Shown here piece by piece: positions 3,896 through 59,093 of a stretch of 64,000 nt of DNA. The number at the start of each line of letters is the position of its first letter. The first letter of the stretch is position 1. Both the position numbers and the translations under genes were made by a program. Below the pieces are notes generated by a model that worked only from the letters and a program-made list of their open reading frames with translations, had not been told where the DNA came from and made no database searches. This DNA comes from a bacterium (GTDB lineage Bacteria > UBA8248): contig OZ253442.1 of NCBI GenBank assembly GCA_965261085.1, positions 3,648,001 to 3,712,000 of the forward strand, read 5' to 3'.

Positions 3896-4549
3896 TTAGT
3901 CGTCCTCGTAAACCCCGCCGTCGCTGCTCTCCGGAAAAACTTCACGGTAAATATCCGAGAGATTTCTGCCTTCGAAAGTCCAGCGCCCACACGGATTAGC
4001 CGAGTAATTCAGGTCCAGGGCCATGTTTGTTGCAGCCGTCAAAGACATTTCCTCGCCACGAAACGACACCTTTTTCTCTCCAATCACGATCGCTTTCTCG
4101 TGTGCGCCATTCGTGGACACCAGTTCCGAACCATCTGGAATTCCCATGACCCTAAAATTCAAATTCGGTCTGTGATTGCGTCTTTTGAATTTCCTCGCAT
4201 CCTCTTTTTCTTCGGAAGACAAATCTTTATCCAAGTCACGCTCAATCTCCGGGGTTACGTCTCGGGCGTCCGGCCAGATTTTGAGAAGAGCCTCTACTTG
4301 GGAACTCCCTACTTCAAAGAACTCTCGGGAACGACTCAGTCTGTGCGGCTCGAATGCGACATGAAGGGCTTTCTCGAGTTCATCCCCCTTTTCTTCAACC
4401 TCGACCGCGATGGTGCAATCGAACGGAAGGGGAACGCCTGTCGTATACAATTCTTTCATTCTCGCCTGGAGGTCATCCCGCGTCGTCTTGCCGATCTTGA
4501 TGAGGTCGGGCATAGCCGGGTTAGTCAGAACATAAACAATGACGGACAC
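3896..4549 (-). CDS. GIY-YIG / T5orf172-domain nuclease-like protein
   Basis: VYVLTNPAMPDLIKIGKT...RMKELYTTGVPLPF...EKALH...REFF. Confidence 0.8.
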   Translation of the reverse strand: MSVIVYVLTNPAMPDLIKIGKTTRDDLQARMKELYTTGVPLPFDCTIAVEVEEKGDELEKALHVAFEPHRLSRSREFFEVGSSQVEALLKIWPDARDVTPEIERDLDKDLSSEEKEDARKFKRRNHRPNLNFRVMGIPDGSELVSTNGAHEKAIVIGEKKVSFRGEEMSLTAATNMALDLNYSANPCGRWTFEGRNLSDIYREVFPESSDGGVYEDD

Positions 4550-4806: not shown

Positions 4807-5229
4807 ATGAATTATTGGGCATACGTTCATCCGGCTTTTCAGATTGCCACGCTTTCGCTGGGCCTGATCACTCTGGCCAACGGCTTGCGCGTGAGGCGTT
4901 CCCGAAGGGGAGGAGCCGGACCCGAGACGGCGCGCATCGCCCGCCTTCACATGCGGCTCGGGCGATGGTTCATCGCTTTTTTCTCGGCGGGCTACGCTTT
5001 GGGGCTGGGCGGGATGCGCTTCGCCCTGGAAGGGCCCCTCTACGAGACGGCGCACAGCTATTTCGCCACCCTGGCCCTGGGCTTGTTCTGGACGACGGCC
5101 TATCTGGGACGAAGACTGAGAAAAAATCTCAAAAACGACGATTTGCGGCAGATTCACTCCTATTGCGGGTTTCTGGCCGTTTTTCTCGCCCTGTTCGTCG
5201 CTTTTTTGGGGATGCGCCTACTCCCCTAG
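4807..5229 (+). CDS. DUF4079-like 4-TM membrane protein (cytochrome b561-like His pattern)
   Basis: Hydrophobic segments with His at HP, RLHMRLG, TAHSYF and RQIHSY. Confidence 0.65.
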   Translation: MNYWAYVHPAFQIATLSLGLITLANGLRVRRSRRGGAGPETARIARLHMRLGRWFIAFFSAGYALGLGGMRFALEGPLYETAHSYFATLALGLFWTTAYLGRRLRKNLKNDDLRQIHSYCGFLAVFLALFVAFLGMRLLP

Positions 5230-5472
5230 CGTCCTCGATTCTGATAGAATTAGGAGGGAGCCGCCGCTTCAAGAAGCAGGAAAATTCTCCATGTCCTTAT
5301 TCTCGCTCTCGTCTTCATGCCCCATGATTATCATGGCCGGCAATCAGACATTTTGCCCGGCGCAAACCTTTCGTGTATCCTGCAATCCATTGGCTCGACC
5401 AACACCCAAAATTCAAGAAATAGCGGACGACGAAAATTCGTATCGCAATTATCCCTCCATGGAGGAAGAATT

Positions 5473-6426
5473 ATGCTGAGAAAATCGTGGTTCATCCTGT
5501 TCGCCGCGCTCCTCATCGCCTCGCTTTGGGCCGCCCTTCCGGCCCAGGCGGCGAACCCATGCGCCAAGAACCCGTGCGCGGCGAAAAATCCGTGCGCGTC
5601 AAATCCTTGTGCGAAAAACCCCTGCGCTAAAAATCCTTGCGCAAAAAATCCCTGTGCAAAGAACCCATGCGCCAAGAACCCCTGCGCAGGAAATCCGTGT
5701 GCTGCCAAGAACCCTTGTGCTAAAAACCCCTGTGGCGCGAACCCGTGCGCGAAGGCGGCGAAGAACCCCTGTGGCGCGAACCCATGCGCCAAGGCGGCGA
5801 AAAACCCTTGTGGCGGGAATCCGTGCAACCCTTGTGCGGGCGGCGCGGCCCGGGCGAGGAGCGAGGCCGTCATGCTCGTCGGCCAGGTCACCGGCTACAG
5901 CAAGGGCTATCTGGGCGTGCGCACCTCCGCCGGCAAGAACGTGAGCGTCCACGTGGTGAAAACCACGCTGGCGCACAGGGGGCCGAAACCGATCAGCGCA
6001 GCCTCCATCAAGGCCGGAACCCGGGTGAACATCTCCACCCAGGCCAGGGGCGGCTACTACAAGGCGAACTTCATCTACGCCCTCGTAAGCGGCGGAGGTA
6101 ATCCCTGCGGCGCCAACCCCTGTGGCGGTAACCCCTGCGCCAAAAATCCCTGCGCCGGCAACCCTTGCGCGAAGACCGCCAAGAACCCTTGCGGGGGAAA
6201 CCCCTGCGCAGCGAAAAATCCTTGCGGGGCCAATCCATGCGCCAAGAAAAACCCGTGCGGCGCAAACCCCTGCGCAGCCAAGAACCCTTGCGCCAGTAAC
6301 CCGTGCGCGAAAAAAAATCCGTGTGGTGGGAACCCTTGCGCGAAAAACCCGTGCGCCGCCAAGAATCCTTGTGCGGCGAAGAATCCGTGCGCCAAGAATC
6401 CTTGCGCTCCGGGAGGGAAAAAATAG
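5473..6426 (+). CDS. Exported Cys-rich protein with two Asn-Pro-Cys repeat arms (about 18 and 19 NPC) flanking a small beta (DUF5666/OB-like) domain
   Basis: GGAGG RBS at 5461, ATG 5473, signal peptide ending AQA, repeats (A/G)(A/K)KNPC. Confidence 0.85.
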   Translation: MLRKSWFILFAALLIASLWAALPAQAANPCAKNPCAAKNPCASNPCAKNPCAKNPCAKNPCAKNPCAKNPCAGNPCAAKNPCAKNPCGANPCAKAAKNPCGANPCAKAAKNPCGGNPCNPCAGGAARARSEAVMLVGQVTGYSKGYLGVRTSAGKNVSVHVVKTTLAHRGPKPISAASIKAGTRVNISTQARGGYYKANFIYALVSGGGNPCGANPCGGNPCAKNPCAGNPCAKTAKNPCGGNPCAAKNPCGANPCAKKNPCGANPCAAKNPCASNPCAKKNPCGGNPCAKNPCAAKNPCAAKNPCAKNPCAPGGKK

Positions 6427-6500
6427 AAATGCCTCCACGCGCGGTGCGTGGAGTTTGACTTTTCTTGAAGTCGGATTTTTCCATATCCTGCAAGGAGAAA

Positions 6501-7358
6501 ATGATGAAGACAGCAAAGTGGGGCATCATTCTCGCCGTGGCCTTAGGCCTGATGATTCCATCGGCCGCCCAGGCGGCGGAAAAGAAGGCGACTATCACGC
6601 CGCCGCCCTTTTTCTTCACCCAGCAACGCGACGCCAGCGTGAAGGACTCCGTCACCCGGGGCAAGAAAATCTTCAGAGACATAGGCTGCGTGGGCTGCCA
6701 CCCCCGGGGCCGCACCGTCGGCGGCACCGCCGTGGACATCATGGGCTTCAGGAACCCGGTGCCCATTCCCACCCTCATGGGAGCGGCGGATCACTTCCCG
6801 CGCCTGAGTCCGGCAAGCCAGGTGGTGAACGTCGGGCAGTTCAACGACCTTTGCTCCACGACGTTCATCGGCAATCCGCCCATGGACCCCTATTCCCAGA
6901 GATACAAGGACCTCGAATCCTACGTGGTTTCGCTCTCCCGCGCGCGATACAAGCGGATGCTCGACTGGGAGGCGAAGCGCAAGGCGTTCATGAAGACGGT
7001 GCAGCCCGCGGCCGGTGGGGGGAACCCCTGCGGAGCCAACCCCTGCGCAGCCAAGAACCCTTGCGGGGGTAATCCTTGCGCCAAGAATCCATGCGCGGCG
7101 AAGAATCCCTGCGCCGCCAAGAACCCGTGCGCGTCAAAAAACCCCTGCGCGGGGATAAATCCTTGCGCCAAAAATCCGTGCGCGGCTAAGAATCCCTGTG
7201 CGGCCAAAAATCCTTGTGCGGCGAAGAACCCCTGCGCTGCCAAAAATCCTTGTGCGAAGAACCCTTGCGCTGCGAAAAACCCCTGCGCTAAGAATCCTTG
7301 CGCGAAAAACCCGTGCGCGGCAAAGAATCCGTGCGCAAAGAATCCATGCAAGAAATAA
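6501..7358 (+). CDS. Exported monohaem cytochrome c (SoxA/TsdA-like His/Cys type) with a C-terminal tail of about 20 NPC repeats
   Basis: AAGGAG RBS, signal peptide, CVGCH, FP...NDLC...LESYVVSL pattern, NPC tail. Confidence 0.85.
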   Translation: MMKTAKWGIILAVALGLMIPSAAQAAEKKATITPPPFFFTQQRDASVKDSVTRGKKIFRDIGCVGCHPRGRTVGGTAVDIMGFRNPVPIPTLMGAADHFPRLSPASQVVNVGQFNDLCSTTFIGNPPMDPYSQRYKDLESYVVSLSRARYKRMLDWEAKRKAFMKTVQPAAGGGNPCGANPCAAKNPCGGNPCAKNPCAAKNPCAAKNPCASKNPCAGINPCAKNPCAAKNPCAAKNPCAAKNPCAAKNPCAKNPCAAKNPCAKNPCAKNPCAAKNPCAKNPCKK

Positions 7359-7496
7359 TGGAGGCTTAGCCGACATATTCGGATGAGCATCCGGCGCGCG
7401 CGCGTTTGAGACACCGCCTCCCCGCATCGATCGGGGATGGCGGAGTCTCCGCGCCTGCGTCCCATATCGACGAGACCGATGAAAGAGGACGGGAGA

Positions 7497-8297
7497 ATGA
7501 AGTTTCTGAAGAAAAGGGGGTTGTGGATCGTCGTGGCTCTCGCGTGGAGCCTCATCGCGCCCGCCGGTTCTCTTGCCGCCAAGAGAATACCTCCCAAGAC
7601 CGAGACGGCGAAGCAAAACGGCGCGGACTACTGGCTGGGCAAGGAAATCTATGAGGAAATCTGTTTTTCCTGCCACGGCAGCAAGGGTGACGGGAAGGGC
7701 CCTAGCTGGCGGAGTTCGAGGCCGAGACCGCAGGTGTTCATCAGCCCCTACATGAGGCGCATGACGGATGACTACATCTTCTCCATCGTGAAGTTCGGCA
7801 AGATGAATGTCTTGAAAAACCAGACGAAGGGCCACAAGATAAAAAACGGCGTCCCCACCGCCATGCCCTCGTTCGGCGAAGTGCTCGAAGACGACCAGAT
7901 AAGAAAGCTCATCAAATGGGAGCGCGGCTTCACGAGCGGCAAACAGCCCAAGGATGAGGAGTCGAAAGGGATCTTCATCGACGCCTGCTCCCAGTGCCAC
8001 GGCAAACAGGGCTTCGGCAACGGAATCCGTCCCGTGGAGGATCAGGACCCCGAAAAACCGTTCATCAGCCACATTCAGCCGCCGCCGATGAACTATCACC
8101 TAAAAGAGCAGATGGCGCGCTTTGACGACGAATTCCTCTTCTGGCTCATCAAGTTCGGCCGCATCGACGTCACCGAGATGAAGAAGTTCGACTTCATGAA
8201 GGCCTACGGCCACGTGCTGAGCGATGAGGAGATATGGTCGGTCGTCCAGTATGTCCGCGAAACGTTCATCGACGGCAAGCCGAGAAAGAAGAAATAG
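7497..8297 (+). CDS. Exported dihaem cytochrome c
   Basis: Signal peptide; CFSCHG and CSQCHG; AMPSFGEVL and LSDEEIWSVVQYVR class I cytochrome c helices. Confidence 0.9.
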   Translation: MKFLKKRGLWIVVALAWSLIAPAGSLAAKRIPPKTETAKQNGADYWLGKEIYEEICFSCHGSKGDGKGPSWRSSRPRPQVFISPYMRRMTDDYIFSIVKFGKMNVLKNQTKGHKIKNGVPTAMPSFGEVLEDDQIRKLIKWERGFTSGKQPKDEESKGIFIDACSQCHGKQGFGNGIRPVEDQDPEKPFISHIQPPPMNYHLKEQMARFDDEFLFWLIKFGRIDVTEMKKFDFMKAYGHVLSDEEIWSVVQYVRETFIDGKPRKKK

Positions 8298-8346: not shown

Positions 8347-8773
8347 ATGCGCTTGTGGAGTCTTCACCCGAAATATATCGACGCCAGGGGCCTCGTCGCC
8401 CTGTGGAGAGAAGGCCTCCTCGCCCAGGCGGTTCTCACGGCCAAGACGCGCGGCTACCGCCGCCATCCCCAATTGCTTCGCTTTCACTCAGGCGGCAGAC
8501 CCGCCGCCTTCATCGCCGAATACTTAAGGGCCGTACACGCGGAATCACTCGCACGGGGCTACCGCTTCGACGTAAACAAGACAGGTTGCAGCCGCACTTC
8601 CTCAAAGCTGGAAGTAACAAGCGGCCAGCTCGATTTCGAATGGGCTCATCTCATGAAAAAGCTGGAAACCCGTGCGCCGGAACTACATGAGAGATTGATG
8701 GCGACGGCCTCCCCCCAATCTCATCCCCTGTTCCGCAACGCCCGGCGGGGTTGCGGACTGGGAGCGGCCGTAA
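8347..8773 (+). pseudogene. Pyrimidine dimer DNA glycosylase/endonuclease V family, frameshift near 8737
   Basis: MRLWSLHPKYID..GLVALWREGLLAQAVL...GYRRHPQL; the family-like C-terminus TPGGVADWERP* (TAA 8771-8773) is in another frame. Confidence 0.7.
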
Positions 8774-8860
8774 GTCTCTATTTCAGGACAAGACGAGGCG
8801 CTCGCTTTATGAGAAAATACGCGCGTTGCCCGAAACGTAAGTTCCCTGAGGAGTTTCATC

Positions 8861-9172
8861 ATGAGTCTGAACGTCGAAGCATCGCGAGAGGAGGTCGCCG
8901 CCTTTTGTGAGCGCTGGCAGGTTACACAACTCGCCATTTTCGGCTCGGCGCTGCGGGAAGATTTCGGGCCCGATAGCGACGTAGACCTTCTCGTGAGCTT
9001 CGAAGACGGCGCGCGCCATACGCTCTTTGACATGCACTACATGGAGGAGGAGCTTAAAACGATATTCGGGCGTGAGGTCGATCTCATTGAGCGCGTAGGG
9101 GTCGAACGAAGCCGAAACCACATCCGCCGCGAAGCCATCCTCCAATCCGCCGAGACGATTTATGCGGCGTGA
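8861..9172 (+). CDS. Minimal nucleotidyltransferase (MntA-type antitoxin)
   Basis: IFGSALREDFGPDSDVDLLV...FGREVDL. Confidence 0.9.
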   Translation: MSLNVEASREEVAAFCERWQVTQLAIFGSALREDFGPDSDVDLLVSFEDGARHTLFDMHYMEEELKTIFGREVDLIERVGVERSRNHIRREAILQSAETIYAA

Positions 9173-9500
9173 CGACGCCTGGCTGGTCGACATGTTACAG
9201 GCCGCGAGAGAGGCGGTGGAGTTCGCGAACGGACTGAGCTTCGCGGAATTCGAACAAAACCGCATGGTGCAACTCGCGATCCTGAAAGCTATGGAAATCG
9301 TAGGAGAAGCCGCCTCCCACGTCGGTGCCGACGCACGAGAAGCCTATTCCGAAATTCCCTGGCCTGAAATCGTCGGTATGCGCAATCGTCTCGTGCATGG
9401 ATATTTCAACGTCAATCTGAAGCGTGTGTGGGAAACCGTCCAACAGGACATCCCCCGGCTTATTTCACAACTCGAACGGCTCGCACCGCCGGAGTCTTAG
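9162..9500 (+). CDS. DUF86/HepT HEPN RNase toxin
   Basis: EIVGEAA, IPW..IVGMRNRLVHGY (RX4H); overlaps the MNT gene. Confidence 0.9.
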   Translation: MRRDDAWLVDMLQAAREAVEFANGLSFAEFEQNRMVQLAILKAMEIVGEAASHVGADAREAYSEIPWPEIVGMRNRLVHGYFNVNLKRVWETVQQDIPRLISQLERLAPPES

Positions 9501-10673: not shown

Positions 10674-10874
10674 GGACCCGCCTCCACATCTGATGAAGTT
10701 CGACCGCACGAACCTTAGCATATATCAACATGAACATGCGGCGCAGGCGCGATACGCTTTCAGGCGTGAGGGCACGCCGTGTGCGAGCGATTTGACGCCT
10801 TTGCTCCGCTTGGGCATATATTCATGGCGTTCCCAGCGGGAAACCTCACAGCGAAACCACAGGGCGCATGCGAA

Positions 10875-11702
10875 ATGAGAGCAATAGAGAAAACCGGCGC
10901 ACATCATGTCGCGGCGCGCTTTATTTTCCCCCTCCTCATCCTTCTGATCTTTACGGCTCCGGCGGCGGGAGAGCGACAGGGCAAACGCGATGAGACCGTT
11001 CCCTCCCCTCCCATCATCAAAGTGCTTCCCGATACGAAAGACGGCCGGGCGATGGTGTTCGTGCCGGGGGGCCGCTTCACGCAAGGCTCATACGACGGCA
11101 ACCCTCAGGAGCTTCCCGTGCGAAAGGTCTTCATCTCCCCGTTCTGGATGGATCGCGATGAGGTGTCCGTCGCCGGTTGGGAGAGGTTCCGAGAGACCAC
11201 GGGCCACCGGGCGTCTAAGTATTCTCGGGACAAAACGCTCCACCGGCCTCATCTGCCGGTCGTGGGCGTCTCCTGGTTCGACGCCGGGGCGTATTGCGCC
11301 TGGGCCGGCAAGCGCCTGCCCACCGAAGCCGAGTGGGAAAAGACGGCGCGCGGCGCGGACGCGAGGCGCTACCCGTGGGGCGATTTTTTCGATCGCGCCC
11401 GCGTGGGCGGTGGCGGCCCCCAGCCCGTGGTCGGCAATCCGGGCGGCGAATCGCCCTATGGCGCGCGTTCGATGGCGGGCGGCGTCTGGGAGTGGACGCA
11501 TGATTTCTGGGGCGAGTTCTATTACCGCGAAGCGCCGCTCAAAGACCCGCAGGGGCCGCCTTCCGGGTTTTTGCACACCATTCGGGGCGGTTCGTGGCGC
11601 GAAGGCCCCGAATACTTGAGGAGTGCGGAGCGTTTTCGCCTCGACGGCATCATCCGCTGGAAAATTCTGGGCTTTCGCTGCGCGAAGAGCGGGGGGAGGT
11701 AG
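10875..11702 (+). CDS. Formylglycine-generating-enzyme (FGE-sulfatase) domain protein
   Basis: PVVGVSWFDA.AYC.WAGKRLPTEAEWEK.ARG, RGGSW, LGFRCA; hydrophobic N-terminus. Confidence 0.9.
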   Translation: MRAIEKTGAHHVAARFIFPLLILLIFTAPAAGERQGKRDETVPSPPIIKVLPDTKDGRAMVFVPGGRFTQGSYDGNPQELPVRKVFISPFWMDRDEVSVAGWERFRETTGHRASKYSRDKTLHRPHLPVVGVSWFDAGAYCAWAGKRLPTEAEWEKTARGADARRYPWGDFFDRARVGGGGPQPVVGNPGGESPYGARSMAGGVWEWTHDFWGEFYYREAPLKDPQGPPSGFLHTIRGGSWREGPEYLRSAERFRLDGIIRWKILGFRCAKSGGR

Positions 11703-45814: not shown

Positions 45815-45893
45815 TGAGACGCAATCCTGGATGTCATGACAGGGTTGCCCTTCATTCCGAGACCCACGCTCCGGCGTGGGTTTTCGTGTTTTT
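45815..45893 (+). ncRNA. Candidate DUF3800-associated structured RNA with terminator
   Basis: Stem GCAATCCTG/CAGGGTTGC (45821-45848), then GAGACCCACGC-TCCG-GCGTGGGTTTT plus a U-tract, between the promoter and the DUF3800 gene. Confidence 0.6.
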
Positions 45894-45911
45894 GCGATCT
45901 TGGGTTGCTCA

Positions 45912-46652
45912 TTGACTTACATCGCCTATCTTGACGAATTTGGACACATCGGGCCTTACATCAGCCGGAGCCATCCGAATCACAACGATAGTCCTGTGTT
46001 CGGCCTTGCCGGCTTCGTTCTTCCAACTGATGAAGTACGCAGGTTCGGGACGTGGTTTTTTCAACGCAAATGCGAATTGCTCGATTTCGAGATTAAGCAG
46101 TCTGGCAAAAATCCCGCCCGATGGGAGAAAAAGGGAGCCCGTCTTTATACGGTAACCAACGTTATTAGGTATCCTGAACTGCGAAGATTCACAAACCGCC
46201 TGTTGAACATGATCACAATACTCGGCGGTTTCGTATTCTATGTTGGAATCAAGAAAAACGCCGATCCTGAGCATCACAAGCCAAATCTGCTTTACGAACG
46301 GATTCTTGTTGAGGCAATCAAGCGGATCAATGGGTACTGTTCTGAAGATTGCAAGCTCCCAGAAAATTTTCTTATGGCTCTTGACCAACACCAGCACCGC
46401 TCGGCGTTACTTACAAGAGCGGCGCAAAGCATGTATGGAATTCAATCATATCGATGTCTGATTGAGCAGCCTTTCCATCTGGAAAGCCACCGCTATCAAA
46501 CCATACAGGCTGCCGATTGGATTGCGGGGCTGGTTGGACGAATTGGAGCGATTTGGACAGATCCAGAAGCCTATCCCGAAAACGAGGTGTTCCGAAGGTA
46601 TTTTGAACATCGCCTTCATCACGTCAGTCGACGGAGTGGAATCCGGAATTGA
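45912..46652 (+). CDS. DUF3800 domain protein (RNase H-like)
   Basis: YIAYLDEFGH N-terminus, EKKG, ES..YQTIQAADWIAG; lower GC than the flanks. Confidence 0.85.
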   Translation: MTYIAYLDEFGHIGPYISRSHPNHNDSPVFGLAGFVLPTDEVRRFGTWFFQRKCELLDFEIKQSGKNPARWEKKGARLYTVTNVIRYPELRRFTNRLLNMITILGGFVFYVGIKKNADPEHHKPNLLYERILVEAIKRINGYCSEDCKLPENFLMALDQHQHRSALLTRAAQSMYGIQSYRCLIEQPFHLESHRYQTIQAADWIAGLVGRIGAIWTDPEAYPENEVFRRYFEHRLHHVSRRSGIRN

Positions 46653-48277: not shown

Positions 48278-51121
48278 TTAGTCCTCTCCCTCCAGATTCA
48301 TCTTGAGCAACTCCCCCAACGCCTCTCCTTCGGAAATGTCGGCGGGCCAGCCATAGGCGGCGGCTACAGCGGCGTCGAGTTCCGCGTGGGTGTCGGCGAG
48401 CCATTGCGGACGGGTGTTGTAGAGGTTGGTGAGGGTGCGCTTCTTGAGTTCTTTCGCGGAGGTTTCATCGAGCGGGACGGGACGCTTGGGATATCCCGGA
48501 ACAGGCTCGTCCACCCACTCCACCCATTCGGGCGGATTCAGCCAGTTGTCTCGGAGTTCCACCAGCCGCCGTGCAGCTTCGGCGATTAGGACGGCGCGTG
48601 GATCGTCCTTGTAATCGACGGCGGATACATCGGGCGAAAGGCCTTTCGGGAATGGATAGGTCTCGAAGGTGGTGGTCGGCGTATAGCGTGGGTCGTTTCC
48701 CACCCCAACCCAAGTGCAAAGTCTGAGTGACCACGCTTCATGAAACCGGCTGTGGAGAACCCCGAATGTCGTATCGTCGTCGCGAGCGATTACGATAACT
48801 TGGCAATCGGGACAAATACCAGCATCCAGCCACACGAATAGTCGATGCTTGGCGACGCGGGGCGTGGCGATGTAGCGCGATAGGCCGTTTATGGCTTGCC
48901 ACATCTCCGGGCGAGGACGCCAGTGTCGCCACCAAAAATCCATAATTCCTTTTTCGTCGCTTTTCTTTTTCACCGGTAAAACATGTTCCTGGATATAAGC
49001 AAAAGGCGCTTCATAAAGCGCTGCGTCGGCCTCGCTCATCGTATCGCCGAAATCGACGATCCACATGTCTCGTGGACGGCGCGTCAGGTCCATGCCGTTC
49101 ATCCAAGGCTTCAAAACGTCGGCGTTGGGCCGCCCGTTAGGGTTCGCGGGGAGTCGCAGCCACGACCGCGCCAAATCTCCGGGGATATCGAACGAACCAC
49201 GCTTGATGTCTCCCTGAAAAGCAACACCCTCGCTTCGTTTCAGCGGATTCGCTGAAGTGAGATCGAGACTTCCTGCGGATAAGTCCGCGTTGATTTGGGA
49301 TACATCACTCTCGTCCAGACGAACGGGAAGTTCGGCATCCTTTGAAGCGAAGCAGATCAGCGAGACGCGAACCGCTGCCCCCTCGACGACCCAAGACTCA
49401 TCCGAGTGGGCGTCGAAAATAGCCGAATCTTCCAGAATTTTATCCAGTGTTTTACGATTTGTACCGCCACGGATCGAATTCGTCGCCACCAGACCGGCGC
49501 GTTCAACTTTTCCTTCAGCGACCAAACGTCCTGCCTTGGCGAACCAGTAACAAACCAAATCGGGCTTGCCGCGAATCAATCCTCTGTATGTGCGTGGTAG
49601 TGTTTCGGCGTAATCATATCCTAATTCCTTGCGGAGTTTTCTATTTCCCAGAAACGGGGGGTTGCCGATGACGACGTCGACTTCCGGCCAGTCGGGTTCT
49701 TCGCCCTCCACCGTCAATATCGCGTCGCGGCATTCGATTGTGTCGAGTGGTTTAAGAACCGGGTCTCGATTCTCGACAAACCCGTTGCGCCGCATCCACT
49801 GAATCTCACCAATCCACACCGAGACGCGGGCGAGTTCGGCGGCGTAGGGGTTGATTTCGATTCCCTTGACGTTAGCGGGACCGACCGAGGGGAACGCCCG
49901 TTCGAGACCCATCGCCTCGGCTTCGAGCTGCGCGCGGTGCTCCACGTCCTTTAGTGCGTGAAGCGCCAGATAGAGAAAATTGCCCGAACCGCAGGCGGGG
50001 TCGAGCACTTGGAACCCTCGCAGTTTCGCAAGAAAATCGCGCAATAGCTGATTCGCCAACCCACGCCGCCTCGTGCGCACAGAAGCCGATTTGGTCTCGC
50101 CTGCCCGTTCGAGATGTTCGGCGATTTCCCTCTTTACTTTCTCCCATTCGGCGAGCAGGGGGCGAGTGATGACCGGATCGATGATGCACATGATCTTGTC
50201 GCGATCCGTGTAGTGCGCTCCGAGTTGTGAACGTTTATCCGGATTGAGGCCACGCTCGAAAAGTGTGCCCAGGATAGAAGGGTCGATTTCCGACCAGTCG
50301 AGACCCGCCGCCGCGAGCGCGGTTTCTATCTCGGCTCTTTCGAGCGGCAGGGCGGAATCGTCGTCGAACAGCCCGCCGTTGAACCACGCCACGGACTCGA
50401 AGCCGACATCCCCGCCTTCGGACATCGCCCCGAACAGGCGGCTTGCCAATTCGGCAAACACCTCGGGCCGATTTCTCGCGCCTTGTAACATCCGCGTGAA
50501 CATCTTGTTCGGCAGAAGCCCCACGTCCTCGGCGAACATGCAGAACACCAGCCTGTTGATGAAATGCGCCACCGCCTGCGGATCGCGTCCGCGTCCTCGT
50601 AGACTATGGGCCAGCAGGGCGAAGGTGGCAGCCGCGCGCTCGGTGATATCCTGCCTGCTCTCGCCGGGCCGGAGCCGTTCAGGGTCGGCCATCGCCCATT
50701 TGAGCTTGTCGCGGTTTGCGGCATCCACCAAATCTTCAAGCGCGAACTCGTGCGTCTCGCTCACGCTGTTCGTCCAGTTGGTATAGATGCGGAAGAGCGC
50801 CATGTCGGAGACGATCAAGAGCGGCGGGTTGTCGAGCGCTAGAGTGTATTGCCTGAGTTACCTGAAAGCGGCGTCCAAATTCTTGTGCTTGCCCTTGTAT
50901 TCCCAGGCGAAATGATGCCGCTTCCACACGTCGGCCCAGCCCTTGCCGCCGCCGTCCTTGCGCGCGCCGCGCTCGAAGCAGTAGTGATCGCCCTTAGGGT
51001 CGGCCTCCGCCGGAGTCGGCTCGTCCAGCAGACGGCACAGGTCGATGAAGTGCTCCTGCGCCGCCGAACTTTCTTTCAACTCCGAGACCCGCCACTTGGC
51101 GATGAACTCACCCGGCGTCAT
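48278..51121 (-). pseudogene. MmeI-like type IIL/IIG restriction-modification enzyme with a premature TAA at 50858-50860
   Basis: MTPGEFIAKW...GWADVWKR..FAWEYKG...AAFR*LRQYTLALDNPPLLIVSDM continues in frame into LGAHYT, DPACGSGNFL, GNPPF and the TRD. Confidence 0.85.
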
Positions 51122-51859: not shown

Positions 51860-52732
51860 TCAGCGATTGAGGACTTGCTTCCAGTTATTTCTGAGCGGCC
51901 GCAACCAGACGTCCTTTTTGGGCTTGTCGTAGCGTCTGTCCCTGTCGTAGCGTCCACGACCCTGGGTGGTTCCGACGTGAATCCATCCCGATGCCCTGTA
52001 GACGGCGCCGGTATAGCGGGGCGTCTCGACGAAGGTCTCGATGAGCACGGGGGTGACGCCATAGCGCTCGGTCCAGTCTCCGGGCAGGCGACGGCGGATG
52101 ATGGCGAGGAGGTGGGAGCCGAGGTTGGGGATTTTGATCCATGGCAGGATGAGGAACCTCGGGTTGTCGACCACGAGGGGGAGGTTCTTCTCGCGCAGCC
52201 CGGACGTCCAGCCGATGAAGGCATCGCGCGGGGCGAGCTTCCATGCGGCGGTGGAGAAGCCGAGCATGGCGAGGGGCCTGCCGTCGCAGTCGTGGACGGC
52301 GTAGCGCATCTGTGCGCCGACGAGGGTCTTGTAGCCCAGGTAATGGTAACGGGCGACGAACTCGTTCCAGAGCTTGCCCTCGCGGGTTCCGCGCACGACG
52401 ATGCGCATATCGAGGGGACGTACCTCATCGAGGGTCTCAGGCGCCGGGATGAGGGGCGCTTCGGTGTCGGGTCCGAAGATGATTGGTCCGGGCCGGTTCT
52501 GACGCCACTTCGGAGGCGGCAGCGTGATCAGGCCGTCCTTGTGCATGGCGAGCATGGTCACCCGGGCCATCATGTCCTTGAGTCCGCCGTCGGGCTTGAA
52601 CCAGCCGATGCGGCGGCAGAACTCCTTCGAGAGCGCATGGCGGTTGAGCGCAGGAGGACCGGCGATCAGCGCGCGCAGCAGCGCCATCTCTTCCGTCGTG
52701 AAGTCGCGTCCGTAGTAGCGGCACTCGGTCAC
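51860..52732 (-). CDS. DUF4338 / DruA-like protein inside the IS
   Basis: R..LS.E.C...W, LWNE...YHYLGY..LVGAQMRY, RD.FIGW, RFLILPW...NLGS, ETFVE..RY.G..YRA.GW...G.T.GRG. Confidence 0.88.
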   Translation of the reverse strand: MTECRYYGRDFTTEEMALLRALIAGPPALNRHALSKEFCRRIGWFKPDGGLKDMMARVTMLAMHKDGLITLPPPKWRQNRPGPIIFGPDTEAPLIPAPETLDEVRPLDMRIVVRGTREGKLWNEFVARYHYLGYKTLVGAQMRYAVHDCDGRPLAMLGFSTAAWKLAPRDAFIGWTSGLREKNLPLVVDNPRFLILPWIKIPNLGSHLLAIIRRRLPGDWTERYGVTPVLIETFVETPRYTGAVYRASGWIHVGTTQGRGRYDRDRRYDKPKKDVWLRPLRNNWKQVLNR

Positions 52733-52736
52733 GGCG

Positions 52737-55066
52737 TCATCCCGGCGCCATGAGGGCGCGCCTGCGTTGTGCGTCCATTGACCAGGGCAGCCACGCGGAG
52801 AGGTCCCCGGGCGCCCGGCCGCCGTTCTCCGCGCAGGCGGTGAGCCATGCCTCCAGCCAGCGGAGAGGGTCGATGCCGTTCGAGGAGAGTGTACCGAGGA
52901 CCGAGTACATCATCGCCGTAAACCGGGCGCCGGCCTCGCTGTCGGAGCCGAACGAGAGTCGCCTGCCGATTACTGGACCCCTGAGCACTCTCTCTGATTG
53001 ATTATTATCCATCGGTACCGAGGGGCGCTCGAGGAATACGCTCAGCCCCTCGCGATGGTTCAGCAGCGAGCGAAGCGCCTTGCCCTCGGGCGCCTGCGCC
53101 GGCAGGGCGGCGAGTTCCCTCCGGGCCTGCGCGAACAGGCTCTCGAGCGCCTTCCTGAGCGCAGCCTGCGCTACGCCGAACGCCGCGCCCTGGCGTTCGG
53201 CGCCCGGGTCGTAACGGGCCAGGCGCGCCTCGTTCAGGCGGTAGAGCTGCGCGATCCGCCCGATCCATCTCTCGCACCATGGCGTCAGCCGCTCCTCTCC
53301 TGCGGCGCAGTGGATATAATCGCGGCGTTGATGCGCCCAGCACCATGCGAGAGTGACCAGACCCCCGGGAATGCGCGCCAGCTTCTTGTAGGCGCTGTAG
53401 CGGTCGCAGACGAGGACCGTATGGCGGCCGGCCGCGCCGAACAGCTTCATCGCGACTTCCGCGCTCCGCGAGGGGTCGACGTGGAAGTAGACGGCGTCCG
53501 TGCTTACCGATGTCCACAGCCAGGCGCGGCTCGAGCGTCCTTGCTCGCGAAGCGACTGGACGCGCCACGTCGTCTCGTCCCCGTGGCGCACCGCCGCCTC
53601 GTTCTGGCGGGCGAGGATCGCGGCAGCCACCGGATCGAACAGGGGTGTGAAGCGGTGCGCGCCGCCGGCCAGCGTCCCTGCGGAGACAGGAAGCCCCTGG
53701 TCGGAGAGCCACGCGGCGACCCGGCGCAGCGGGCGGAAGCAGGCGTAGCGCTCGAACAGGAAGCGCGCCCACACGCTCGTCCCGAAGGACGTGCCCGCGA
53801 ACAGGCGCGGCGCGGGCGGCGCCGACACTTCGGTGGGAGACGACGCGCATTCGCACCCCCGGCGCCACCTCGGACGGCGGATGACGCGCCTGTGAGCCGA
53901 GACTTCGATCTCGACGATGCTCGATACACGGGCGCCGTTCGCCACGTAGGGCTTCCCGCAACCGGCGCAGACGCGCGCACCGGCCGCGGGTTGCGCACTT
54001 CGGTCCTCTCATCGAGCGCGGGCCGTGGGGTGCGGCCATGGCCCCGGGCGCCGGGCTGCCCGCCGCGTCTTCGCTCCGAGCGCGGCCTCTCCTGCCGCTC
54101 GCTCCCGCGCCCGAACAGCCTCCTCGCCAGCACCGCTCCGGTGGCGCGCAGCTTCCCGAGCTCGGCCTCCAGACGCGCTTGGCGGGCCTCCGACTTGCGA
54201 AGCGCACGGCACAACCGCGCGTTCTCCCTGGACAGGGACCCGAGCGCCGTCTTCTGACGCCGCGACCTCCCCAGGGCCTTGCGCAGTTCCGCGTCCGCAC
54301 GCGACGGCGACCTCGAGCGCGCCGCCTCGCGCGCGCGCAGCAACCGCGCCTTCAGCCGTTCGGTCGCAATGCCTGCGGCTCCCAGGGAGACTTTAAGACG
54401 GTAGACCTCCGCGGACAACGACTTGACCACCTCCGCCTGGTCGCGCAATCGCCGCAACCTCCTGTAGAGCCCGATGGTCTCCTCGTCCAGGCTCCGGATG
54501 GTCTCTTTGTGAGCCGCCGACTTCTGCTTCTCCCGGGCCAGTCGTTCCTCCAGCCGGGCGACCTCCTTCTCCCGCCAGCCGATCTCCTTGCGCTCCTCCA
54601 GGGCCTTGCGCACCCGCCCCGCCTCCCCCGGCGACGGCACGCCCGAGAGCTCCTTGCGAAGCCGGACGACCTCCATGCGCAGCGACATGAGCGGGCTGCG
54701 CTTGCGCGGCTCGACTCCCGCTTCCGCGAGTAGCTTCTCCAGCCGCGCCACTTCCGCCTTGAGCGACAGCGCGTCCTTCGCCGCGCGGCGGGCTTCCTTC
54801 GCTTCCCCGGCGGCCTCCTTGAGCTTCTTCCGGCAGACGTCGAGCTGCCGCTTCAGCCTACCCGCACGGGCGCGGGAATCCACTTCCGCCCACCGTAACT
54901 CCTCGCCGCGCGCCTCCGCCGCCTCCGCGCGCGCACGCTCGCGCTCGTACAGCGAACGCCAGTACGCCTCTCCGGTTGTGGACAACTCGGGGGGATGAGG
55001 CCATCGGCCATCCGGCTTCTCGACCAACGCCGGCTCCGTCTCGACAGCTTCTGTCCAAATCTTCAT
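52737..55066 (-). pseudogene. IS66 TnpC transposase with a long coiled-coil N-terminus, 1-nt frameshift near 53987
   Basis: LFGRGSE, GGQPGARGHGR, then in the shifted frame CAGCGKPY zinc finger, HGDETTW, CDRYSAY, CWAHQRR, DNNQSER. Confidence 0.88.
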
Positions 55067-55325
55067 GCCGACATGGTTACCACATGTCGAATCTCGTTAC
55101 CAGCCCCTTACGGGAATATCTTCGAATATCCGGGATGAGAAAGGCGGGCCATCACCTTGCCGCCGAACGGTTACTTGTCGCCGGCCCTGTCAGAACGTCC
55201 TCCAAAATCCGGCTCGCAACGGCTTGATAGCGGTCATCCTCGGCGCCACGAGACGTTCATTCAAGAACCATCGGTCCGCTCCCCCAGTGTAGGCGACTAC
55301 AGCAACGTCGAACTTCTGAGCGCGG

Positions 55326-55490
55326 TCCGCAGCGGAGCACGCCCCGCCTGAATACATGAAGTCGCCGTGTTCCCTGATCATCGAGTCCCCGAACGGGCCA
55401 TGGAGCGGCACGTGGATATCCCGGGGAAAAACTCTACCCTAAATCGAATACCTTGGGTCCGCGCTTTGGCGCGTACGTCTTCCATGTTCA
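55326..55490 (-). pseudogene. Degenerate duplicate of the 5' end of the cyclase gene (3003-3797)
   Basis: GAGCACGCCCCGCCTGAATACATGAAGTCGCCGTGTTCCCTGATCATCGAG identical to 3637-3687; ATGAACATGGAAGACGTACGC start with indels. Confidence 0.85.
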
Positions 55491-55593
55491 TTATTTCTTC
55501 AATCAAGAATTCGTGAGCCGGCGGGCCGATGGGTCGAGCCGAATACAAAACCACATATAAAGTCGCCGATGTATCCGCTAATCCGGAAACACA

Positions 55594-56196
55594 TCAAGAC
55601 GAGCATCTATTCACTAAATTTCCCCTCAAGCGATACGTTCTTAAAATTTTCGTTCCAATTTTTTCGGTTTTTTCGCTGGTGGAAATTCTCCAGCCAACAC
55701 ATTCCATCGGGATGGAATGACGAGAAAGGAATGCGCTGCATTGGGCTTCGGCCTTGAACAAGGGATACCTTGAATCACGAAATCTTCGATATTTCTTTTT
55801 TGATAATTCGTTGTACAAGTCGTTCAAACAACGGACGCGTTTCAGCGCTTCATTACGCCCCAATTTTTGTGGAACAGGTTTTTTAACATTCGAATTGCCG
55901 AGGTTGCCAAAAAATTTATCCAAGCTCATCCCAAGTTGTTGATTCCAGCTTTCCCCCTTCAGCATCTGCTCAGGGTCGGTATAATAATCGATAACCGCGG
56001 CCACCTTCGCGTCTTCGTCATATGCTCCCCATGCTATCACCGATGCCCGCATCAAGACTCCCGGAGATTTCCGGTATTCCTGCTTGGTGAACCCCAGATG
56101 CCGGATTCTGAACCGTTCTTCCATCAAGCTATTAACCGCTCCACAAGCGGAAAGCGTGAACATACATATGATTGAAGTCGTCAGAATTTTCAACAT
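55594..56196 (-). CDS. Hypothetical lipoprotein
   Basis: AAGGA RBS, MLKILTTSIICMFTLSAC lipobox; low GC. Confidence 0.65.
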   Translation of the reverse strand: MLKILTTSIICMFTLSACGAVNSLMEERFRIRHLGFTKQEYRKSPGVLMRASVIAWGAYDEDAKVAAVIDYYTDPEQMLKGESWNQQLGMSLDKFFGNLGNSNVKKPVPQKLGRNEALKRVRCLNDLYNELSKKKYRRFRDSRYPLFKAEAQCSAFLSRHSIPMECVGWRISTSEKTEKIGTKILRTYRLRGNLVNRCSS

Positions 56197-56432
56197 TGTA
56201 AATTCCTTCATGGTGGTTGTGTTGGGGAAGAGGCGAAATTTCAACAAACCGCGGGCCGATGGCCAAAGATGTTTCGGTTACTATAGCTCAGCGTCTCACT
56301 CTCCTCCAAGGCAACAAGGATAGTGATGAAAATACGTTATATCGAAACTCCCTGGAGCCGAGGTGGATGAGTTTTGCGCCGTATATTCGTCCAGCTTTTC
56401 AAATAGAGGCGCTTTCGCTGGGCTTGATCGCT

Positions 56433-56461
56433 AGAAGGGCAGCCGTGCGGGCTGCCCTTCT
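56433..56461. terminator. Hairpin downstream of the TbpB-like gene
   Basis: AGAAGGGCAGCC-GTGCG-GGCTGCCCTTCT. Confidence 0.6.
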
Positions 56462-56493
56462 GTTGTTACGTTGGTGCTGTTATGGGGACGTGC

Positions 56494-57849
56494 CTATTGC
56501 TTATACGCCCCGTAGGCGCCCAGAAAACCCTCGCTTCCATCCGCTGTGGCGGCGCCGAACGTCCCGGCGACCGACCCCGGTTTGCCGTCAGTCTCACTGT
56601 TGCCGTAGAACTGGCCGCCCCACTTGCCTGTGAAGTTGCTTCCACCAACAACATCCATTCTGGTGTCTCCCGTGAAGAACCCGCTATTCAAACTCCCGAT
56701 ATTGGCGCTGTCCAGGGTCAATTCCGGGTTTCCTGAGACGGTGAGGCCCTCTACGTCGAAGTTATGGATACGTCCTCTAATCGTTCCCAACTCGCTGCCG
56801 TTGCCGAAGTTGGCCATTAGGGTGACGCTGGCGTCAAAGAAGTAATTTCTTCCTTCCTCCGCATCCGCGTACACTCCGGTGGCGCCGTCGGGAAGAGAAT
56901 ACGTGACGGTCCCCGTCACACCCACCAGGTTGTTCTGCTGGAACGGATCGCTGCCGTCGACAAAGGCTCCGTATTCGTAGTCATCGAGACTGGATGCGTT
57001 ATCCGGCGAATACACCCATATGCCTCCTGCCAGATAGTCGGTGTCTCCGCCACCCTCATGATCCGTGTATACATCGATCCAGATGTCTCCGGGTGCGAGA
57101 CCGAGTTGCGCCGCATCTGCTTGCCCCAGACTCCGATAAAACTCGACGCCGCCAGACACCCGCTCATGCAACCGCGTTCCCTTGGGTCGGTCAAGCACAT
57201 CTTCCACATTTATTTCCGGTGTTCCGTTTGCGGTGCTGACTACTTCCATGCCGTTGTAGGATAAGACGTAGGTTTGCTGTCCGGCAGTACCGCTAACTTC
57301 GATGTTGACGGAATCGGTCGTAACGCCGCTCGCATCGGCGTCCGAGGACTGCGTTACGCTGCCCGCCTTCGGCGTGTTTCGCGCGGCTGCCGCGATTTGG
57401 AGTTGAACTATATTGGCGGTGGTTGCCTCGATAGTGGGAGCGTTATTACCATTTGATGGCGTCATCGCGACACCGGGAAGGGCTGTGACTTCCCAGTCCC
57501 CGGCACTGTTCTTTCTTGCAGAAAAATTATTGGCTGTAATGCTGTTGCCACTACAAATACTTCCGCCCAAACAGCCCCGCCCATTGGCATCTACTGAAAA
57601 GGTGAAGCTGTTACCGGGACTTTCATGGCTGCAAGATTGACCCGCGGACAGAGTACCACCCACCATACAGGCTGTCGGCGTCATCATGTCAGAGCCGCCG
57701 GGCGTCTGTGGCGTTTCTCCAGGTGTTTGTGGTGGTGTCGGCATCGACCCACTCGACGCCGATTTGGTATCCCCACCACCACAGCCGGATAATACCACTG
57801 CAGTTATTGCGGCTATCATAAACATGAAAAACCAGTTTCTCTTCAGCAT
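56494..57849 (-). CDS. Surface lipoprotein with a TbpB-like C-terminal beta-barrel
   Basis: Lipobox VLSGC, Pro/Thr linker, DTDYLAGGIW, GKWGGQFYG...GSVAGTFGA...GAYGA. Confidence 0.8.
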   Translation of the reverse strand: MLKRNWFFMFMIAAITAVVLSGCGGGDTKSASSGSMPTPPQTPGETPQTPGGSDMMTPTACMVGGTLSAGQSCSHESPGNSFTFSVDANGRGCLGGSICSGNSITANNFSARKNSAGDWEVTALPGVAMTPSNGNNAPTIEATTANIVQLQIAAAARNTPKAGSVTQSSDADASGVTTDSVNIEVSGTAGQQTYVLSYNGMEVVSTANGTPEINVEDVLDRPKGTRLHERVSGGVEFYRSLGQADAAQLGLAPGDIWIDVYTDHEGGGDTDYLAGGIWVYSPDNASSLDDYEYGAFVDGSDPFQQNNLVGVTGTVTYSLPDGATGVYADAEEGRNYFFDASVTLMANFGNGSELGTIRGRIHNFDVEGLTVSGNPELTLDSANIGSLNSGFFTGDTRMDVVGGSNFTGKWGGQFYGNSETDGKPGSVAGTFGAATADGSEGFLGAYGAYKQ

Positions 57850-58664
57850 TGTTATTTGCTCCTCTTTTCCAGGTAGAAGAATTACAAGAATATACCCCGT
57901 GAAGTCACAGAAGCTCTGGACGGGGCATCCCATTGGAGTGAACTTTCTGTTCTGCGTGTTCAGGTCGACTACCAATACTTAACGTATAGGAAAGCGTGAG
58001 CTTCTTCGTGCCCCCAGATTTAGGGGGATTCAGCGAATTTTTCGCCCGTTTAGAGGAGGAAAGGCGTTTTTAGCGCAGGTGAGATTCTTTTATCCTGTTG
58101 ATATTATCATGAATATTCATTTCTTCCAATCTCATCCGGAATCCGCCTTCCGCAATATGCAATCAAAACGAAAGCGGGCGAATTCAAACTCCTGCGCATC
58201 CCGGCGGGTCCGATTCGCCGGAACCATCCCGTCTCCTCTACCACCCGCACTACGCAACCGCGCCTCCGTCCTGTTTCGCCTTTCGCCGTCGCCTCGCGTA
58301 GCGCCGTGTTCCTGCGTCTTGGGGGCTTCGACATCTCATGTCTCCTCCCCTCGCCTGCGGCCGCCGGGCTTCGTTTCCGGCTGTATGGGGTCGTGAAACG
58401 CCACCCCGCAAGGGCCCTGTATTTGCACAAATTTAATTATCCCTAGCCCAAAAATTTCCCGTTTCACAAGGTGTGTCCGAATCGTTTATCCTGGATAGTG
58501 ATCAGACTTTGGCTAGGAGGCGCCAGGTTCCGTACCACGGGCCGGCTCCGTATCGTTCGACTTGGTCGTACGGGCCCGTGCGGGATTTATGGGACGCCTC
58601 ATGAAACGAAAGAAAGAAGAGGGAACGAATGGGATCTCGAGGGAAGTGGGCGAGAGGCCTGAAA

Positions 58665-58886: not shown

Positions 58887-59093
58887 GAATAGATCGGGCG
58901 TCCGGTCGGCGCCTTCACCCCCCCGGGGGGGTGCGCCTTTTCGGGCGCAGATGCGCCCGAAAGCGAGCATTCCCGCCTGGCGGCGAATATCAACGAATCC
59001 CCCACCGACAAGCATGAGTCATGGACGACCCGGACGCCGGTCTTGCGTCCGGACCGGTGCGGCGGCGCACCACATGAAAGGAAAGGTGAGACA

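Follow-up and report, generated by a model that had tools for sequence, protein, structure and literature searches.

In the SoxA family, the haem-ligating Cys forms an S-thiosulfonate, which is resolved by the arm thiol of SoxY or, in TsdA, by a second thiosulfate (PMC4423706). MccSep (PMC13510729) combines a His/Cys-ligated haem with a selenocysteine, cleaves the S-S bonds of polysulfides and reduces selenite. The periplasmic Met-rich peptide MrpX of Azospira suillum is oxidized by hypochlorite and enzymatically regenerated, under the control of SigF/NrsF (PMC4436054). In this study, we compared with these systems a gene from a bacterium of the UBA8248 lineage. The window analysed is a whole stretch of 64,000 nucleotides (assembly GCA_965261085.1, contig OZ253442.1, forward-strand positions 3,648,001 to 3,712,000), and the gene is an open reading frame (ORF) at 5473..6426 on its + strand, which encodes a protein of 317 amino acids (aa) in which Asn-Pro-Cys (NPC) units surround a small core of the OB fold. 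We refer to this product as the OB-NPC protein.

On sequence criteria, the OB-NPC protein is a real and unusual gene product exported by the Sec pathway. By analogy with described systems, we tentatively favour the view that it is a haem-less carrier or substrate, the arm thiols of which would perform disulfide or sulfane chemistry at a haem-associated Cys or selenocysteine centre wired to the respiratory chain; we regard this as possible, if somewhat short of probable.

Repeat arms and OB-fold core of the exported protein

The protein consists, in order, of a signal peptide, 18 NPC units, an 88-aa core and 19 NPC units. Translation of the ORF bore out the architecture proposed in a sequence-only reading of the window (a signal peptide and 18 + 19 NPC units with A/G/K spacers). 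The features are as follows; the structural assignments refer to an AlphaFold 2 (AF2) model and its confidence score (predicted local distance difference test, pLDDT).

5473..5550, + strand: Sec-type signal peptide, residues 1-26, with cleavage after AQA as read from the sequence
5551..5835, + strand: N-terminal arm (N-arm) of 95 residues with 18 NPC units and 13 Lys, no D/E/H/M, predicted to be disordered (pLDDT <50)
5836..6099, + strand: OB-fold core, residues 122-209, DUF5666/CusF-like and Cys-free (AF2, VIA, Foldseek and phmmer)
6100..6426, + strand: C-terminal arm (C-arm) of 108 residues with 19 NPC units and 15 Lys, ending at the stop codon (composition and AF2)

The N-terminus reads MLRKSWFILFAALLIASLWAALPAQA, followed by the cut site and then by ANPC..., and the protein ends in ...NPCAPGGKK. 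Neither a twin-arginine motif nor a lipobox is present in the signal peptide. A ribosome-binding site, GGAGGA, lies ahead of the gene at 5461-5466.

All of the 37 NPC units are in frame, 18 within residues 28-121 and 19 within residues 210-311, and the Cys-to-Cys spacing within the arms is 5 (23 times), 6 (8 times), 8 (3 times) or 3 (once). The Asn codons of the units are AAC (23) and AAT (14), the Pro codons CCT (12), CCC (11), CCG (10) and CCA (4), and the Cys codons TGC (26) and TGT (11). Of the 16 possible synonymous 9-mers for NPC, 13 are used; there are no non-synonymous changes, and all 111 codons are kept. At the DNA level, the tandem repeats of the gene match at only 59-87%. Because the synonymous codons are mixed and the DNA repeats have diverged to this extent, it is the peptide rather than the DNA that is conserved, which agrees with the selection on the peptide proposed earlier. 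Only two stop-to-stop frames in the whole 4.27-Mb genome hold three or more NPC units, namely the OB-NPC gene (37) and the next gene (20), and a chance origin is therefore excluded. The antisense ORFs listed over the region were rejected as mirror artefacts of the repeat.

Apart from one or two S/T, the only residues in the arms are A, N, P, C, K and G. D, E, H and M are absent, and the net charge is +13 in the N-arm and +15 in the C-arm. As a matter of composition only, the two arms together hold 37 Cys and 28 Lys, without His or Met. With the Sec-type signal peptide and the predicted disorder of both arms, the earlier description of an exported, thiol-dense protein holds.

The AF2 model, built on a 24-row family alignment, has a pLDDT of about 97 for residues 128-205, with strands at 131-203, and of <50 across nearly all of both arms. 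The central beta domain of about 80 aa expected from the sequence is accordingly modelled as a five-stranded closed beta barrel of the OB fold. In the VIA comparison, the top match of the core was PilY2 (Z 9.2, root-mean-square deviation 3.1, 73 aligned residues), followed by SSB and PriB (Z 9.1); tRNA-synthetase anticodon domains were also among the matches, and the periplasmic copper chaperone domains SilB-C and SilF (Cu(I)) scored Z 8.4 and 7.7. Foldseek aligned the core with CusF at a TM-score of 0.67-0.73 and gave a probability of 1.00 to RPA, Ten1 and CusF, while its search against the PDB returned no E-value of 1e-3 or below. By phmmer, the core matches the family representative P0071 (E 3.9e-11), a protein with five DUF5666 domains (1.1e-60). 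A Pfam scan of the OB-NPC protein found no family, neither DUF5666 (PF18914) nor CusF_Ec, and the protein Atlas scores were all 0.84 or lower, with one neighbour named DUF5666 at 0.83. The invariant core residues among relatives are Gly, Ser, Ala and Tyr; no conserved metal-type ligand (His, Met, Trp or Cys) was found in the core alignment.

These features bear on a first alternative, in which the protein would buffer thiophilic metals or metalloids in the periplasm (Cu(I), Hg, Cd, As(III), selenite or tellurite), with thiolate clusters in the arms, Lys balancing their charge and the neighbouring cytochromes keeping or resetting the redox state. Csp1 and metallothioneins are Cys-rich Cu(I) stores, and the arms offer 37 Cys and 28 Lys with no other functional side chains. 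The core matches CusF, SilB and SilF-Cu(I) as given above, the NPC arms are fused to YHS domains in two family representatives, and cupredoxin genes occur at related loci. Selenite reduction by MccSep (PMC13510729) points the same way. However, none of the potential ligands His, Met, Trp and Cys is conserved in the core, and OB matches at Z 8-9 are unspecific, with higher values for SSB and tRNA-synthetase domains. The gene cassette described below has no metal efflux, sensor or chaperone gene. Moreover, chelation would not explain the strict Asn and Pro beside every Cys, nor the partner with a haem-Cys/selenocysteine site. We consider metal buffering unlikely. The Cys/Lys makeup of the arms, the resemblance of the core to CusF/SilF and the fusions to YHS domains would each be compatible with the metal binding suggested in the sequence-only reading.

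Partner cytochromes and a probable cysteine/selenocysteine position

The OB-NPC gene belongs to a four-gene cassette on the + strand, in the order DUF4079, OB-NPC protein, monohaem cytochrome and dihaem cytochrome c. Three genes for haem proteins thus flank the ORF, a context that was not mentioned in the sequence-only reading.

4807..5229, + strand: DUF4079 membrane protein, cytochrome b561-like, first gene of the cassette (PF13301, 2.5e-13; PF03188, 1.4e-5)
5230..5472, + strand: conserved 243-nt leader between the DUF4079 and OB-NPC genes, with GGAGGA at 5461-5466
6433..6453, + strand: terminator-like hairpin just 3' of the OB-NPC stop codon, a possible attenuator and a weak feature
6501..7358, + strand: exported monohaem cytochrome c of 285 aa with a tail of 20 NPC units (CVGCH, invariant Cys118)
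7437..8297, + strand: dihaem cytochrome c (CFSCH, CSQCH), probable start at 7497 (PF13442, 4.2e-22, two stretches)

The DUF4079 protein has four invariant His in 8 of 8 orthologues, one in each predicted transmembrane helix, and passes PF03188 above its 23-bit cut-off; it is a putative haem-binding protein of the b561-like type. The OB-NPC gene occurs in 18 further genomes of the phylum, and the cassette is largely retained in them. A CHPRG-type monohaem gene lies just downstream on the same strand in 17/18, a dihaem ORF follows it in 17/18, and DUF4079 lies upstream on the same strand in 12/18. In one locus, L091, the OB gene and the dihaem ORF are present, but the motif search gave no CHPRG cytochrome. 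The trio of OB-NPC, cytochrome and dihaem genes recurs in loci titled Deltaproteobacteria, Binatia and Acidiferrales. Genes for a BNR propeller, a cupredoxin and an extracytoplasmic function (ECF) sigma factor plus a zf-HC2 anti-sigma factor accompany it there, as does a divergent five-haem gene.

In the monohaem cytochrome, CVGCH occupies residues 63-67 (nt 6687-6701), Cys118 is encoded at nt 6852-6854, and the NPC tail extends over 7023-7355. The protein thus carries the c-type haem motif expected of the SoxA/TsdA class, and both CxxCH and Cys118 are invariant in 14/14 aligned sequences of the Nitrospinota-type and proteobacterial groups. Proteobacterial NPC cytochromes pass the SoxA-TsdA_cyt-c family PF21342 (8.7e-10 and 2.5e-9; 38.9 and 37.4 bits against a cut-off of 27). 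When the monohaem group was aligned with this proteobacterial SoxA-like group by hhalign, the probability was 88.6% (E 2.6e-6), and both CxxCH and the lone Cys fell into register. The PDB profile matches of the haem domain are weak (dihaem peroxidases 8e-5, SoxA 2c1d 4e-3, TsdA 0.06). In a phmmer alignment of the proteobacterial domain with SoxA 1h31_A (E 0.08), the pattern ...C..CH...YP.YV...E.M...C pairs with chain residues H80 and C114, the latter of which we take to be a haem ligand. From these alignments, we infer that the monohaem domain is a distant relative of the SoxA/TsdA/peroxidase-type cytochromes and that Cys118 would correspond to the haem-ligating catalytic Cys of SoxA.

The Cys118 codon is replaced by an in-frame TGA in 7/7 loci (Deltaproteobacteria, Binatia and Acidiferrales type plus one Nitrospinaceae locus). 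TGA is also found there in 5/18 loci of the phylum, and 12/18 have Cys. The distinct TGA-type loci are 11 in all. The cytochromes that the TGA splits into two ORFs lie at the following positions, with further loci in L099, L101, L103 and L104.

L012:5983-6600, TGA-split cytochrome
L013:2154-2760, TGA-split cytochrome
L014:4711-5340, TGA-split cytochrome
L015:374-990, TGA-split cytochrome
L016:5983-6520, TGA-split cytochrome
L017:928-1550, TGA-split cytochrome
L062:5086-5470, TGA-split cytochrome

The reading frame is conserved beyond the TGA and runs into the NPC tail, so that these relatives show the pattern of selenoproteins, an in-frame TGA where homologues have Cys, with the frame kept past it. 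SelA was above its cut-off in 4/5 TGA-type genomes. Third codon positions are invariant at 9/12 in the 36 nt from the TGA, compared with 2/13 in the next 39 nt and 4/25 upstream (Fisher p 0.005, a value overstated because the sequences are kin). In the TGA-split cytochromes, the sequence is frozen over 35 nt past the UGA. A candidate SECIS hairpin 13 nt past the UGA (-9.3 kcal/mol, z -1.16) is not significant alone and shows no compensatory changes, and Rfam gave no match at the UGA site. Judged from these sequences, the TGA at the Cys118 codon is a probable selenocysteine codon, and there are probably unannotated selenoproteins among the relatives. Since a Cys/selenocysteine pair is the usual mark of a catalytic redox residue, the alternation would mark Cys118 as such a residue, engaged in chalcogen redox chemistry. 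No link of NPC cytochromes to selenocysteine was found in the published literature searched.

The haem domain and its variable residue also bear on a second alternative, a sacrificial oxidant sink in which the arm thiols would scavenge hypochlorite/chlorite, peroxide or peroxynitrite and then be recycled. The best PDB profile matches of the haem domain are the dihaem peroxidases (8e-5), and genes for an ECF sigma factor with a zf-HC2 anti-sigma factor and for thioredoxin-like proteins occur at related NPC loci. Nitrospinota is the title given to the nearest named relatives, and chlorite can arise from chlorate in nitrite oxidisers. MrpX offers a precedent (PMC4436054). Against this, the cassette in the window has no sigma factor, anti-sigma factor, thioredoxin or CcdA gene. 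Cytochromes c would be thermodynamically unable to re-reduce disulfides, so that the three haem genes would have no clear role, and selenocysteine in the partner enzyme of the relatives suggests specific catalysis. An oxidant sink therefore seems to us distinctly unlikely.

Several other observations were made within the cassette. The leader at 5230-5472 has a mean column identity of 89% over four relatives, with long invariant blocks; a perfectly kept block extends from GGCAATCAGACATTTTGCCCGGCGC through AACCTTTCGTGTATCCT with one variable base between them. A sigma-70-like promoter scan of the leader region found no site on the + strand. Because the leader is nearly invariant among the four relatives and lacks a sigma-70 site, a regulatory element may be situated there. 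Terminator-like hairpins such as that at 6433..6453 are not above the shuffle level (7 sites found, 5.9 expected).

Distribution, neighbouring genes and remaining alternatives

At E 1e-3 or below, an exhaustive HMMER search yielded 549 representatives; a word-index homology search with the core returned just one fragment, 96% identical. The family was surveyed in the best 150 of the 549 representatives plus P0001 (n=151). Four or more NPC units were present in 95/151, and fewer than four in 56/151. This sample included at least 14 full-length NPC-OB-NPC proteins and further fragments, 28 proteins with haem motifs and 30 consisting of arms only. Those of the 56 low-NPC members that were scanned are Pro/Ala/Lys low-complexity proteins (Extensin/HC2 matches), and the figure of 549 therefore overstates the family. 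The number of repeats varies among relatives from 3+5 to 24+20 units, and close kin have totals of 44, 38 and 33, compared with 37 in the OB-NPC protein. The nearest named loci are titled Nitrospinota.

A search for the NPC-repeat motif, which had been proposed in the sequence-only reading, located the arms in at least 537 places among one-genome-per-species contigs, and neighbourhoods were compared in 79 of the loci plus the window. NPC tails flank SoxA/TsdA-type cytochrome domains (PF21342) and P460, DM13, YHS and YceI domains. Individual fusions are to DM13 in P0048, P0072 and P0140, to YHS in P0029 and P0110, and to a YceI-like domain in P0049. Because it is fused to several kinds of periplasmic domain, the NPC arm is a portable module. 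No family library names the NPC arms, and no description of them was found in the literature searched, which lay outside subscription journals and supplements; DUF4079 and DUF5666 received passing mentions only in that literature.

This variability has some bearing on a purely structural role, in which disulfides between arms would build a cross-linked periplasmic mesh or tether without redox turnover. The oxidising periplasm reached by Sec export would favour disulfides between neighbouring Cys, and the arm copy number is free to vary over the range given above. However, the linkage to three haem proteins is conserved, the partner has a Cys/selenocysteine site, the Cys total is odd (37), and electron-transfer domains (SoxA-like, P460 and DM13) carry these arms as well. 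A role of this kind is very improbable.

The genes beside NPC genes were counted in the 79 related loci plus the window (80 in all) by crude ORF calling and BLAST clustering.

DUF6969: 25 loci
Multihaem gene with a weak ExtKL/MccSep match (51 bits, cut-off 250): 18 loci
FGE-sulfatase: 15 loci
Dihaem cytochrome c: 14 loci
160-aa protein without a family: 12 loci
YeeE: 11 loci
Thioredoxin-like: 9 loci
DUF302: 5 loci
Rhodanese: 2 loci

The multihaem neighbour (L045:6142-7395 and 17 other loci) encodes a protein of about 417 aa with five CxxCH motifs. DUF6969 had no match in the genome of the window, an absence that is weak because the control genomes gave none either. The sulfane-sulfur storage that had been suggested as one function of the arms is, on sequence grounds, favoured by the SoxA/TsdA-like neighbour, the TGA in 11 loci, and the YeeE, rhodanese and ExtKL-like genes in related loci.

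The FGE-sulfatase genes raise the question of whether the arms are modified after translation, either as a substrate of MNIO or radical-SAM enzymes, like the metallophores among the ribosomally synthesised and post-translationally modified peptides (RiPPs), or by conversion of their Cys by an FGE-like protein. An FGE-sulfatase gene lies in the window at 10779-11702, FGE-like genes are present in 15/80 NPC loci, the proteobacterial NPC-linked FGE clade keeps its Cys pair, and there is a weak match to CefA (E 0.6). On the other hand, MNIO (PF05114/DUF692) had 0 matches in the 96%-complete genome, with a positive control in Caulobacter, and the CefA model (NF038108) scored 10.1 bits against a cut-off of 30. 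No radical-SAM gene was found among the scanned window ORFs or the conserved neighbours. The protein has no CxPxR motif in its 317 residues and has a Sec signal and a folded core rather than a leader peptide. Between the cassette and the FGE-like gene of the window lie a glycosylase gene and a toxin-antitoxin pair, and the FGE-like product, which lacks the Cys pair, falls into a clade confined to close kin. We hold a modified repeat substrate to be most improbable. The analogy with RiPP metallophores, for which an MNIO/DUF692 partner was to be sought in the genome, is not supported, given the lack of an MNIO match, the low CefA score, the Sec signal peptide and the folded core. The earlier observation that no modifying enzyme is visible in the window stands, as none was found among the 56 window ORFs scanned.

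As one of 8 paralogues, in a clade of close kin without the catalytic Cys pair, the FGE-like protein of the window was rejected as a partner. A separate FGE-like clade lies beside P460-type NPC genes in proteobacteria; its members are exported, are all encoded on the - strand and keep the Cys pair (GGSWDDKGCGVCR), which is situated where true FGE has its copper-binding cysteines. This clade may act on the CNPC-rich arms there.

L027:4743-5630, - strand: FGE-like gene with Cys pair
L029:4858-5733, - strand: FGE-like gene with Cys pair
L035:4446-5318, - strand: FGE-like gene with Cys pair
L048:4970-5902, - strand: FGE-like gene with Cys pair
L049:4749-5639, - strand: FGE-like gene with Cys pair
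L056:4872-5771, - strand: FGE-like gene with Cys pair

The remainder of the window was also surveyed. The interval between the dihaem and FGE-like genes holds a gene for a pyrimidine-dimer glycosylase (8347-8910) and, at 8861-9500, a nucleotidyltransferase/HepT toxin-antitoxin pair. Both have the look of inserted genes, because the FGE-like gene directly follows the dihaem gene in the relative L007. Just 5' of the cassette is a T5orf172/MUG113 (GIY-YIG-like) gene (3896-4549, - strand) with a lower GC content at third codon positions (GC3 0.58), probably a mobile or defence-related insert. The segment 45876-52732 is likely a defence island, with DUF3800 (45876-46652), MmeI-type restriction-modification (48278-50818) and DruA-like Druantia (51860-52732) genes, and near these are several low-GC3 ORFs without a family match (53504-58430). 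A very large + strand ORF of more than 1652 aa begins at 59043 and runs past the end of the window at 64000; at least five cadherin-like beta-sandwich domains lie in it, and it has a faint match to SRCR.

Proposed sulfur chemistry and comparison with known systems

In the carrier reading that we favour, arm thiols, both those of the cytochrome's own tail and those of the OB-core protein, would reach the haem-Cys/selenocysteine site after export and be oxidatively coupled there. The product would be a disulfide or a persulfide/thiosulfonate conjugate with an anionic sulfur species such as sulfide, polysulfide or thiosulfate, much as SoxAX loads the arm of SoxY. The dihaem cytochrome c would receive the two electrons, which the b561-like membrane protein would exchange with the respiratory chain; by analogy with MccSep and TsdA, the reductive direction would be equally possible. 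Arm Cys would be presented on Asn-Pro turns, and arm lysines might depress the pKa of the thiols and draw in anionic substrates, with the OB core serving as no more than a soluble handle or docking piece. Export, fold, disorder, composition, gene linkage and the Cys/TGA alternation come from the data presented above, and the analogous systems supply what is proposed here on how the haem is ligated, which substrate is used and which way the electrons flow.

A more specific version of this reading is that the cassette constitutes an undescribed periplasmic chalcogen-redox machine, in which a SoxA-type haem with a catalytic Cys ligand, exchanged for a natural selenocysteine in some lineages, would load sulfur or selenium on dozens of tethered Cys arms or unload it, and the OB-core protein would be a multivalent store or shuttle of sulfane sulfur linked to respiration through the dihaem and b561-like proteins. 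To our knowledge, sulfur metabolism is not a known trait of the phylum, the closest named relatives of which bear the title Nitrospinota. We regard this version as doubtful.

Several observations weigh against the carrier reading. SoxY (PF13501), the only one of SoxY, SoxZ, SoxB and SoxCD to be searched for, had no match in the genome of the bacterium itself. In contrast to many related loci, no sulfur-transport or rhodanese gene adjoins the cassette in the window, although there is a rhodanese gene 13 kb away. With 19/51 species genomes of the phylum and 5/22 genomes of the genus (that of the window not counted) carrying it, the OB-NPC gene is accessory. The Pfam scan of the monohaem protein of the window found 0 families, PF21342 included, and because the AF2 model of this cytochrome is poor (pLDDT 47), haem ligation by Cys118 depends on weak alignments (PDB E 8e-5 to 0.08). 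The Cys/Lys-only composition of the arms would also suit a metallothionein, similarities exist between the OB core and the periplasmic copper chaperones CusF/SilF, and relatives fuse NPC arms to metal-binding YHS domains. The ECF sigma factor and zf-HC2 anti-sigma factor in related loci point to stress defence over energy metabolism. Metatranscriptome contigs from four runs in two studies, which speak for the reading, carry the OB-NPC and monohaem genes at 90-99% identity, differ in N-arm repeat number and leave parts of the cassette uncovered; contigs from RNA libraries do not prove transcription, nor do they give strand, ends or level.

If the carrier reading is correct, reactive sulfur or thiophilic elements would be carried or stored in a new manner beyond the cytoplasmic membrane, and the relatives would form a new selenoprotein family with selenium at a SoxA-type haem site. 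The Cys/selenocysteine pair provides a defined residue for mutation, and NPC cytochromes are present in cultured bacteria, among them the isolates Sedimenticola selenatireducens DSM 17993, Motiliproteus coralliicola C34 and Stutzerimonas stutzeri CLN100.

Among the known systems, the RiPP metallophores (bufferins, HvfA, methanobactin-type MNIO products and CefA) are likewise exported or secreted and have regularly spaced Cys, but the OB-NPC protein has 317 aa, a folded core and a Sec signal peptide, and its genome lacks MNIO. CusF/SilF, SilB-C and DUF5666 share with the core a small five-stranded periplasmic OB barrel, whereas a Met/His/Trp metal site is not conserved in the OB-NPC core. MrpX (PMC4436054) is similarly an exported low-complexity peptide with repeated sulfur residues, which in its case are recycled by a dedicated redox enzyme; it differs in using Met rather than Cys and in having a molybdoenzyme reductase as its partner instead of cytochromes c. 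No SigF/NrsF pair was found in the window.

MccSep/ExtKL (GSU2937-2936) of Geobacter sulfurreducens has features in common with the NPC cytochrome (PMC13510729). It is a periplasmic c-type cytochrome with a haem-associated Cys and selenocysteine, it performs S-S chemistry, and its family has both Cys and selenocysteine forms. As described there, it has five haems and separate Cys and selenocysteine, in contrast to the one haem and one Cys/selenocysteine position of the NPC cytochrome, and in the NPC system the second thiol would come from the arms. The window has no ExtKL/MccSep-like gene.

SoxYZ/SoxAX and TsdA/TsdB offer the same set of parts (PMC4423706): a beta-rich haem-less carrier, a flexible Cys arm, a cytochrome with a catalytic Cys and a second cytochrome as electron acceptor. 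SoxY has no sequence relation to the OB-NPC protein and differs in having one arm Cys against 37, an Ig-like rather than an OB core, and a C-terminal GGCGG that the OB-NPC protein lacks. Unlike SoxAX, the NPC cytochrome has a single haem domain and carries arms itself. The OB-NPC protein is thus apparently a new variant within an apparently undescribed family, the closest functional analogue of which would be the SoxAX/SoxYZ carrier-arm system.

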